DNA of 64,000 nucleotides from Escherichia coli (GTDB taxonomy: Bacteria > Pseudomonadota > Gammaproteobacteria > Enterobacterales > Enterobacteriaceae): the NCBI RefSeq assembly GCF_045037415.1, contig NZ_CP173438.1. One strand, 5' to 3'. The notes under the pieces were generated by a model. It had not been told where the DNA came from. It ran no database searches and saw only the letters and a list, made by a program, of their open reading frames with translations. Shown here piece by piece: positions 16,918 through 18,314 of the stretch; within the stretch, counting starts at the first letter, position 1; every line of letters begins with the position of its first letter. The position numbers and the translations under genes are program-made.

Positions 16918-17760
16918 TTATTTATCCATAGCGGTTACAGAGTTAGCGAGCCTTTTTTCTTTGCCAAACGGGGTCGTATAGAAGCGTTGTTCAATGCCAT
17001 AAAGCAGTAACTTCAACTCATCGTCATTAGATATTTCAAACTTCTGATTTTCTTTATCGAATTTCAGCTTCTGTTCACCGCAGTAACCGTCGATATAATC
17101 AAGCATGTTAGCTTTATCGTCAGCAGACATCGCATCAAGTGTTGCCATAGCAAGGCCAATACGTTTTCTATTAGGTTTTGAGACGCTATCTACGTTGTAG
17201 TCATTACCCAACTCTATAAACTGTGCATCTAAAAACTGCTCAACTTCTTCTTTTGTTGCTTCCTTGTACAACTCATCGATACCTTTAAAAATGCTCGAGA
17301 TCGTTGCCAGATTTTTGAATATCAAGGTATCGGCCACTTTGAAGTACACTGCATCAGGTAAGGCGTTTATTACTAAACGTGTTTGGCTCTTCTCAATTTC
17401 TGCGGCTTCACCAAAAACAAGCGTTTTGCGTTTTACGAATAGGCTTGGAGTGATTTTTTGAAAGTAAAAATCATTACCTTGAATTGCAAATAAGTAGGCG
17501 ATCTTGGCGAAGTTATCTTTGGTTAAGTCATCGTAGTCTTTTGAATCATAGTCTTTTTTTAGCAGTTCAATACAAAACTCTTTTTGACTAAAGTCTTCAA
17601 TTTTAAACCATGAGTCTTCGTCAAGGTTATGGTCTGGATTGTATGGAATACAGGCATTTAAGTCGATTGTGACGGTATCAAAAAGAGATTGATCAGAAAC
17701 CAATTTGAAAATGCGTTTTTTTGCTCTAGTTTTTATATGTGCCAGTACATGGTCCATCAT
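16918..17760 (-). CDS. Uncharacterised soluble protein (280 aa), second gene of a two-gene cassette coupled to hsdR; candidate defence effector
   Basis: Start ATG overlaps the upstream stop (TAATG); AT-rich; Lys/Asp/Glu-rich; no recognisable catalytic motif. Confidence 0.6.
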   Translation of the reverse strand: MMDHVLAHIKTRAKKRIFKLVSDQSLFDTVTIDLNACIPYNPDHNLDEDSWFKIEDFSQKEFCIELLKKDYDSKDYDDLTKDNFAKIAYLFAIQGNDFYFQKITPSLFVKRKTLVFGEAAEIEKSQTRLVINALPDAVYFKVADTLIFKNLATISSIFKGIDELYKEATKEEVEQFLDAQFIELGNDYNVDSVSKPNRKRIGLAMATLDAMSADDKANMLDYIDGYCGEQKLKFDKENQKFEISNDDELKLLLYGIEQRFYTTPFGKEKRLANSVTAMDK

Positions 17761-18314
17761 TATCCTCGCTCGATAAATGTGTAATTATTGATTCGATAAG
17801 CCAATGATATTTCGATGTCATCTGGCTTCTTGTAGCGCTCTCGGCTAATAAGGAAAATGGCCGTTCCGTTTTTGGTTGTAATGTTATAAAACTCATAACC
17901 AAACAGTAAAAACAATGGGTTAAAGTAGAGTGCTTGCGATAAGAGAGTAAAAACAAACAAAACGCCATAAACAAACCACAATGTCTCCCAGTTACCAATG
18001 CTCAACGCCACGAAAAAGTAACCCAAATAACTTGGTAGGAAGCTGTTATTGGCATGCTCAATACTCGCTACTTCACCCGCCTTAAAATCGTCTTTACCCA
18101 AATACTTACTCAGCCAAATACTCAATCCAGTCGATAAAACAGGGATAAGAAAATAGAGTAAATATGATACTGCGTTCGGAAGTGCTGCTATCCAATCGAA
18201 GCAAGCGAAACCACCAAAGAAATATCCGAGTGAGTACCCTTTTTGTACCGCAAAGATAATCACTAGTAGTGATGTTGCATTGAACGTAAGTAAAACCCGA
18301 AACGCAGTATTCAT
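17760..18314 (-). CDS. Small multi-pass inner-membrane protein (184 aa, four to five hydrophobic segments), first gene of the two-gene cassette
   Basis: Hydrophobic stretches at about residues 7-23, 28-45, 50-68, 96-125, 129-140; start ATG overlaps the hsdR stop (TAATG). Confidence 0.6.
   Translation of the reverse strand: MNTAFRVLLTFNATSLLVIIFAVQKGYSLGYFFGGFACFDWIAALPNAVSYLLYFLIPVLSTGLSIWLSKYLGKDDFKAGEVASIEHANNSFLPSYLGYFFVALSIGNWETLWFVYGVLFVFTLLSQALYFNPLFLLFGYEFYNITTKNGTAIFLISRERYKKPDDIEISLAYRINNYTFIERG

Follow-up and report, generated by a model that had tools for sequence, protein, structure and literature searches.

Two adjacent genes in a chromosomal island of Escherichia coli, located directly downstream of the type I restriction subunit gene hsdR, are very probably kwaA and kwaB and represent a divergent form of Kiwa, a system of defense against phages and plasmids. 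The genes lie within a 64,000-nucleotide stretch of contig NZ_CP173438.1 (assembly GCF_045037415.1; here referred to as the window), and we refer to their open reading frames (ORFs) as ORF1 and ORF2. A sequence-only reading of the window had reported two minus-strand ORFs of 184 and 280 aa directly after hsdR, which are present exactly as it stated, and had put them forward as a candidate undescribed anti-phage module within a restriction operon, with a passing likeness to Kiwa (KwaA/KwaB). That the pair is a module of the anti-phage type was borne out by both profile and fold, and the passing likeness proved to be the correct lead, with PADLOC and Foldseek in agreement on it. We assign the pair to Kiwa because the PADLOC profiles, the Foldseek matches, the Pfam families on relatives, and the RefSeq name concur. 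The clade to which it belongs is a highly divergent branch of a system already known and studied for its mechanism, and not a new defense family. The high interest first attached to the pair rested on its being undescribed; as Kiwa, it is a described one. The sources for the characterized Kiwa systems are Doron et al. 2018 and Zhang, Todeschini et al. (PMC11785009).

At the level of profiles, ORF1 matched the PADLOC KwaA model PDLC00216 over nearly its whole length (E value of 9.3e-16; residues 2 to 182 against profile positions 3 to 170 of 173), and nine PADLOC KwaA models matched it in total. ORF2 was matched by three PADLOC KwaB models, described as a DUF4868 domain, with E values of 7.1e-14, 1.2e-8, and 2.1e-6; the best of these, PDLC00222, covered residues 33 to 276 at profile positions 42 to 289 of 292. 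In the same search, no model beyond those for KwaA and KwaB matched either ORF. The Pfam family PF28043 ("KwaA") is precomputed on relatives of ORF1 with 74 to 98% identity, while a single-sequence Pfam scan of ORF1 itself gave noise only. The family of ORF2 consists of proteins of ~275 aa, 534 of which were retrieved at an E value of ≤1e-3 from 1.84 billion representative proteins. Among 75 ORF2 relatives (31 to 80% identity), PF16162 ("KwaB," formerly DUF4868) was the sole Pfam family to recur; it was found in 5 of the 75 at an E value of ≤1e-3 and in 8 at ≤0.1, the lowest E value being 9.7e-7. NCBIfam gave only a chance match of ORF2 to LptB (E value of 0.11). In RefSeq, ORF1 is a "KwaA family protein" in the newest annotation of E. 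coli loci identical to this one, where ORF2 still appears as "hypothetical protein" or "ATP F0F1 synthase synthase"; an older annotation lists both genes as hypothetical.

Considering that ORF1 and ORF2 are remote in sequence from the characterized Kiwa proteins, we tested their membership by fold, and the link to the solved Kiwa structures rests on this fold comparison together with the PADLOC profiles. Characterized Kiwa systems come from E. coli O55:H7 RM12579, ECOR8, ECOR12, and ECOR49, and the available structures are 9mrx, 9mrg, 9mrr, 9mtn, and 9nyu (PMC11785009); of these, 9mtn and 9nyu are KwaB crystal structures and 9mrx is a KwaA-KwaB complex solved by cryo-electron microscopy. For ORF1, an AlphaFold2 (AF2) model was built from an alignment of the query with 49 partner genes from related loci, and it reached a predicted local distance difference test (pLDDT) score of 86.9. 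The model places helices at residues 2 to 25, 47 to 71, 90 to 105, and 109 to 126 and strands at residues 73 to 75, 82 to 87, 141 to 147, 152 to 157, 172 to 174, and 179 to 182. Two of the strands follow helix 2 and four are C-terminal, and together they are predicted to form a six-strand cytoplasmic beta-barrel. The published KwaA protomer combines four transmembrane helices (TM1 to TM4) with a six-strand barrel contributed by intracellular loop 1 (ICL1) and the C terminus (PMC11785009), an arrangement that the predicted structure reproduces. When the model was compared with the PDB using Foldseek, the top five matches were KwaA chains (9mrx_A, 9mrg, and 9mrr) with a probability of 1.00, E values of 2.9e-5 to 1.5e-3, and template modeling scores of up to 0.60, and the next match had an E value of 1.4. 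A Kyte-Doolittle scan at 1.6 detected three hydrophobic regions in ORF1 and missed TM3, and we hence took the topology from the AF2 model. Of the four to five hydrophobic segments and short tail that had been proposed for ORF1, four segments hold in the model; a fifth does not, and the "tail" is part of the predicted beta-barrel.

The AF2 model of ORF2, built on an alignment of 75 family members, had a pLDDT of 93.3 and a predicted template modeling score of 0.78. All six of its Foldseek matches in the PDB at an E value of ≤1e-3 were KwaB (9mtn, 9mrx_D, and 9nyu; probability of 1.00, E values of 3.5e-7 to 2.7e-6, and template modeling scores of 0.63 to 0.67 over ~320 aligned columns), and the seventh match had an E value of 0.5. 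For both proteins, four to five orders of magnitude separate the Kiwa chains from the next match. The predicted structure of ORF2 is consistent with the KwaB fold, which consists of an N-terminal Rossmann-like domain and a C-terminal DUF4868 domain. In the conserved C-terminal segment RINNYTFI of ORF1, a Y-x-F motif may correspond to the published interface residues Y181/F183, and conservation of this segment would be compatible with a conserved interface. In the ORF2 family, R198 and R259 are nearly invariant and a KPNRKR motif occupies positions 194 to 199; these conserved basic residues may hint at DNA binding.

Like the characterized systems, the pair is ordered kwaA then kwaB, is predicted to combine a KwaA of four transmembrane helices and a six-strand barrel with a full-length two-domain KwaB, and is carried on a mobile element or defense island. 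Several observations nevertheless weigh against the assignment to Kiwa. The proteins share no more than 16 to 18% (KwaA) and 10 to 12% (KwaB) identity with their solved counterparts, and searches of the PDB by sequence with ORF1 and with ORF2, using phmmer with the single sequence and hmmsearch with the family profile, returned no Kiwa chain. PF16162 did not match ORF2 itself, for which Pfam returned only noise (matches of the WAC_Acf1 and p53-inducible11 kind across the scans of the two ORFs). The sole NCBIfam match for ORF1, the KwaA equivalog model NF041622, scored 25.4 bits against a cutoff of 100; judged by these matches, ORF1 is a member of the KwaA family and not an equivalog of the curated E. 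coli type. The proteins are also short. KwaB is 280 aa here compared with ~315 aa, ~35 residues fewer than in the crystallized protein, and KwaA is 184 aa compared with ~195 aa; the published residues Y182/F184/K195 (ECOR49) and Y181/F183/K194 (solved KwaA) imply longer proteins than this KwaA, and the published DNA-contact and interface residues could not be mapped onto this KwaB. To our knowledge, no member of the clade has been characterized experimentally, so that it may depart from characterized Kiwa in trigger, target, and phage range. The check for DUF4868/KwaB that the sequence-only reading had proposed would have misled if made with Pfam, where PF16162 is absent from ORF2 and reaches so few of its relatives, whereas the PADLOC KwaB models do match.

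We considered whether the pair could be a new two-gene defense family that resembles Kiwa in layout only. Such a family would account for the lack of direct Pfam matches and of PDB sequence matches and for the older "hypothetical" annotation, but the near-full-length PADLOC KwaA and KwaB matches, the exclusive Foldseek matches to Kiwa, the Pfam assignments on relatives, and the RefSeq name "KwaA family protein" make it very improbable. A new family unrelated to Kiwa was ruled out by the PADLOC profiles and the Foldseek results for both proteins. The proposal of an undescribed module or new family gave way to a confident match to Kiwa, the very result that it had itself named as contradicting it.

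KwaB entries of the clade (P0001, P0005, P0010, P0016, and others, including E. coli H69 and H70) carry the name "ATP F0F1 synthase synthase," a propagated annotation error without supporting similarity. This name on ORF2 relatives is the sole support for a housekeeping or nondefense role, either the one that the name implies or that of a small transporter with a soluble partner. Neither the query nor the 75 relatives yielded an ATP-synthase-related family in Pfam, NCBIfam, or the PDB, the genes are patchily distributed (76 of 5,426 E. coli genomes), and they always lie in defense islands or mobile elements beside restriction-modification (R-M), DarTG, BREX, or Lamassu genes. We regard the chance of such a role as negligible.

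In the window, kwaA and kwaB belong to a co-oriented minus-strand block whose first gene is hsdM (Table 1). The hsdR/kwaA junction (GAAATAATGAAT) and the kwaA/kwaB junction (GGATAATGATGGAC) are both TAATG stop/start overlaps of 1 nt, the latter with 17760 as the shared base, and the same 1-nt overlap is found at hsdM/hsdS and hsdS/hsdR. The junction sequences agree with the overlaps read earlier at 18314 and 17760 and with their likeness to those of hsdM-hsdS-hsdR. Because 13 of 14 aligned relatives begin at the second Met of ORF2, the true kwaB start is probably ATG 17757, which lies 2 nt past the kwaA stop and has the better AGGA Shine-Dalgarno spacing; the coupling of kwaA and kwaB is tight whichever start holds. 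Downstream, 20 nt separate kwaB from the rhuM-family gene on the same strand, which is probably the last gene of the hsd-kwa transcription unit and may be a third, co-traveling defense gene. A promoter and terminator scan of positions 15500 to 25800, including the hsdR-kwaA interval, gave no signal above shuffled expectation. Together with the gene overlaps, which are the direct basis for the expectation, this result suggests that kwaAB is expressed from the hsd operon, as rhuM probably is too.

The composition of the pair was also described correctly. GC content is 37.1% in ORF2 and 38.9% in ORF1 compared with 48.0% in hsdR, 48.6% in the window, and 50.9% in positions 30000 to 64000, and Lys, Asp, and Glu make up 28.6% of the ORF2 residues. 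The 37 to 39% GC of the cassette relative to the 48% of hsdR suggests that kwaAB joined the hsd operon as a separate acquisition. Just upstream of hsdM, positions 24883 to 25389 (minus strand) encode a 168-aa protein with a RelB/DinJ antitoxin domain at residues 7 to 78. Its C-terminal half has no family match and no obvious toxin partner was seen; it could be a regulator of the hsd operon or an orphan antitoxin.

Table 1. Genes of the hsd-kwa block in the window and DarT-DarG pairs at related loci
Feature	Coordinates	Strand	Description and evidence
rhuM-family gene	15848..16897	-	PADLOC candidate defense family PDC-S05, E 8.4e-167; RefSeq "virulence RhuM family protein"
kwaB (ORF2)	16918..17760	-	Soluble Kiwa partner, very probable, 280 aa; 279 aa if ATG 17757 is used
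kwaA (ORF1)	17760..18314	-	Membrane protein of Kiwa, very probable, 184 aa; PADLOC and AF2/Foldseek
hsdR	18314..21550	-	Type I restriction subunit R, 1078 aa; NCBIfam TIGR00348 E 7.9e-49, PADLOC REase_I E 3.5e-30, RefSeq
hsdS	21550..22836	-	Type I specificity subunit; PADLOC Specificity_I E 4e-97, RefSeq
hsdM	22836..24815	-	Type I methyltransferase; PADLOC MTase_I PDLC03029 E 1.9e-243, NCBIfam TIGR00497
DarT-DarG, loci L002/L003	10841-12533		
DarT-DarG, loci L005/L006	10837-12529		
DarT-DarG, locus L033	7849-9499		
DarT-DarG, locus L024	2-1274		

Related loci were found with a search based on a 15-sequence alignment. Reference contigs (one genome per species) held 206 stretches with a relative, 80 of which were examined, and five other loci bring the set to 85. 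A kwaA homologue lies 0 to 15 nt upstream of kwaB in 84 of the 85 loci, and the exception ends at a contig edge. The two genes are a strictly conserved unit and not a chance pair of ORFs, and the co-occurrence in other genomes for which the sequence-only reading had advised looking is found both with and without hsdR. The hosts comprise Gamma- and Betaproteobacteria, Desulfobacterota, Bacteroidota, Firmicutes, and Actinobacteria. In Hafnia alvei (locus L052, positions 6447 to 7001), the kwaA homologue has an in-frame stop next to an intact kwaB, which reflects either a pseudogene or a sequencing error.

Within E. coli, the 9.2-kb block from hsdM to rhuM was present in 76 of 5,426 complete genomes, always on the chromosome and at least 95% identical, with the kwaAB part at least 99% identical across the carriers. 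All 76 carriers have kwaAB in the same hsd block, and no ECOR or D9 strain was found among the 60 of the 76 carrier genomes listed. KwaB relatives of 82 to 96% identity occur in Vibrio, Shewanella, Aeromonas, Plesiomonas, Proteus, and Alteromonas, and this level of identity across genera indicates recent horizontal spread.

The genes around the cassette show how variable its setting is. Of the 80 reference loci, 57 extend for 6 kb or more upstream of the cassette and were informative. In at least 36 of these, tblastn detected a type I R-M gene (hsdR or hsdM) upstream on the same strand, and four loci (L054, L057, L068, and L074) have kwaAB placed between hsdM/S and hsdR. No hsd gene was found within ~6.5 kb on either side in 19 of the 57, and two more have none upstream on the same strand. 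The HsdR proteins adjacent to the cassette fall into nine clusters at ≥40% identity, with one lineage common to 20 of the 41 loci that have an adjacent HsdR. On a neighbor-joining tree of KwaB, loci with the orders hsdM-hsdS-hsdR then kwaAB, hsdR-hsdM-hsdS then kwaAB, and hsdM-hsdS then kwaAB then hsdR, as well as loci with no hsd genes, are interspersed. The number of HsdR clusters and this interspersion indicate that the association of kwaAB with type I R-M arose repeatedly. The clade is unusually often joined to type I R-M operons, yet this is not a fixed property; the coupling to hsdR that the sequence-only reading had stressed is real in the window but does not define the cassette.

In Shewanella, kwaAB follows a type I R-M system ordered hsdR-hsdM-hsdS and is itself followed by DarT-DarG, and in Vibrio and Alteromonas (82 to 84% KwaB identity) it follows a DUF2357/PDDEXK_7 enzyme. 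In the hsd-free loci that we sampled, the upstream genes were mostly defense genes, including BrxL, Lamassu LmuB, PDC-S06, SoFic, a BbrUII-like restriction endonuclease, and a type IV-like helicase. Because the pair occurs without hsdR beside other defense genes, we regard it as an autonomous defense-island cassette. The full order hsdM-hsdS-hsdR-kwaA-kwaB-rhuM recurs in Dysgonomonas mossii (locus L076, positions 1 to 8838) with 35 to 47% protein identity to E. coli, which reflects either a very old linkage or the convergent assembly of the same parts. A RhuM homologue follows kwaB in L004, L007, L008, L010, and L076, the last of these at 43% identity. Separately, a DarT-DarG toxin-antitoxin pair (DarT plus a Macro domain) is directly beside the cassette in several Shewanella, Vibrio, and Pseudoalteromonas loci (Table 1), and in L002 and L005 it begins 3 nt past kwaB.

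We next weighed the alternative that kwaAB is a Kiwa-derived functional accessory of type I R-M and not an autonomous system. KwaAB might then retain incoming DNA at the entry site for HsdR, or act as a backup or decoy when proteins that mimic DNA to counter restriction (Ocr or ArdA, for example) block R-M, much as Gam is partitioned between Kiwa and RecBCD. Such a role would fit the translational coupling to hsdR in the window, the 36 loci with a same-strand upstream type I R-M system and the four with the pair inside it, the nine HsdR clusters with arrangements interspersed on the KwaB tree, the recurrence of the whole gene order in Dysgonomonas, and the retention of the pair in one hsd block by all 76 E. 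coli carriers; KwaB of other Kiwa systems is, in addition, targeted by the DNA mimic Gam (PMC11785009). In contrast, at least a third of the informative loci lack a nearby type I R-M system and have other defense genes instead, and very close relatives (81 to 83% KwaB identity) sit behind the DUF2357/PDDEXK enzyme. Cloned by themselves, other Kiwa operons confer protection (PMC11785009), and co-oriented embedding of defense genes is a general pattern in type I R-M, BREX, and DISARM operons, which for type I R-M needs no functional dependence (10.1101/2024.01.29.577857). The HsdR lineage shared by 20 of 41 loci, moreover, may simply travel with the cassette. On balance, we consider an accessory role quite unlikely and favor the reading of kwaAB as an autonomous Kiwa cassette.

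Defense genes embedded in type I R-M operons, such as prrC (Payne et al. 2024, 10.1101/2024.01.29.577857), are likewise co-oriented and tightly joined to hsd. PrrC, however, is nearly confined to type I R-M systems, to which it is functionally tied, whereas kwaAB stands apart from R-M in at least a third of loci and, unlike PrrC, belongs to a family known to work alone. An obligate, PrrC-like R-M accessory was set aside, with 19 of 57 informative loci lacking hsd genes nearby and close relatives located behind DUF2357/PDDEXK. The frequent appending to or embedding in type I R-M operons, seen in most informative loci of this clade, is a difference from Kiwa as published, since the pattern is absent from the Kiwa paper. 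Kiwa is not mentioned in the paper on embedding (10.1101/2024.01.29.577857), nor type I R-M in that on Kiwa (PMC11785009), and a literature search returned no reported link between the two, an absence that is not proof that none exists. In Zorya (ZorAB) and other membrane-anchored systems, the membrane part is thought to sense envelope perturbation and is coupled to a cytoplasmic, DNA-directed effector. These systems have no sequence or fold relationship to kwaAB, whose PADLOC and PDB matches are to Kiwa only.

In the characterized systems, KwaA tetramers in the inner membrane bind KwaB dimers, and the trigger is a perturbation of the membrane at phage attachment, DNA ejection, or conjugation; KwaB then binds the entering DNA nonspecifically, replication stalls, and late transcription fails (PMC11785009). 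Both genes are needed, and the DNA mimic Gam inhibits KwaB (PMC11785009). By homology, we infer that the KwaA encoded in the window would form tetramers in the inner membrane and hold KwaB dimers beneath it, and that a disturbance of the membrane by phage attachment, DNA ejection, or conjugation would activate the complex. KwaB would bind the incoming DNA without sequence specificity and, once bound, would stall its replication and block late transcription. The cassette appears to have entered a type I R-M operon at its 3' end, giving the order hsdM-hsdS-hsdR-kwaA-kwaB-rhuM. Probable cotranscription and translational coupling with the hsd genes would place two DNA-targeting layers of defense in one transcription unit.

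The kwaAB region is part of a chromosomal island of E. coli adjoining tRNA-Sec (positions 32525 to 32619), with a RefSeq-annotated integrase beside the tRNA gene and insertion sequence (IS) elements and mobI inside the island, and its earlier description as a mobile island is in accord with these features. RefSeq annotation of an identical region places the tia invasion gene, a phosphoethanolamine transferase gene, and a tyrosine integrase at 26763 to 29195 and 31036 to 32226, and the island at selC is one of mixed virulence and defense content. Directly beside the defense operon, positions 15404 to 15790 (plus strand) encode the conjugative transfer protein MobI(A/C), as annotated in RefSeq. 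The presence of mobI there hints that the defense block derives from a conjugative element of the IncA/C or SXT/R391 type, and the 96% identical Vibrio copies (L007 and L008) fit such an origin. Elsewhere in the window, positions 10934 to 14028 are an exact tandem duplication of a 1,547-bp unit (10934 to 12481 and 12481 to 14028). Each copy holds a 377-aa transposase ORF of the IS110 family, ISEc45-like (11187 to 12320 and 12734 to 13867), and the reference strain 219 has a single copy of the unit at the same place.

The assignment to Kiwa has consequences for annotation. The KwaB of a widespread pair is currently mislabeled as "hypothetical" or "ATP F0F1 synthase synthase" and could be relabeled across a clade whose annotation has been missed in E. 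coli, Vibrio, Shewanella, Aeromonas, Proteus, Pseudomonas, Bacteroidota, and Firmicutes. Broader versions of Pfam PF16162 and of the NCBIfam Kiwa models could take in this clade. With KwaB identity to the solved proteins at ~11%, the clade could also reveal which features of Kiwa are truly conserved. That the clade evolved a working partnership with type I R-M seems unlikely to us. If it did, KwaAB at the entry site would hold back or slow the incoming DNA for the slow, translocating HsdR to find and cut, or, alternatively, DNA-mimic inhibitors such as Ocr and ArdA would be shared with the R-M enzyme so that neither system is fully silenced; either would explain the nine HsdR lineages, the three gene orders, and the translational coupling. 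The repeated joining of kwaAB to type I R-M operons offers a concrete case in which shared regulation of embedded defense systems can be set against their actual cooperation.

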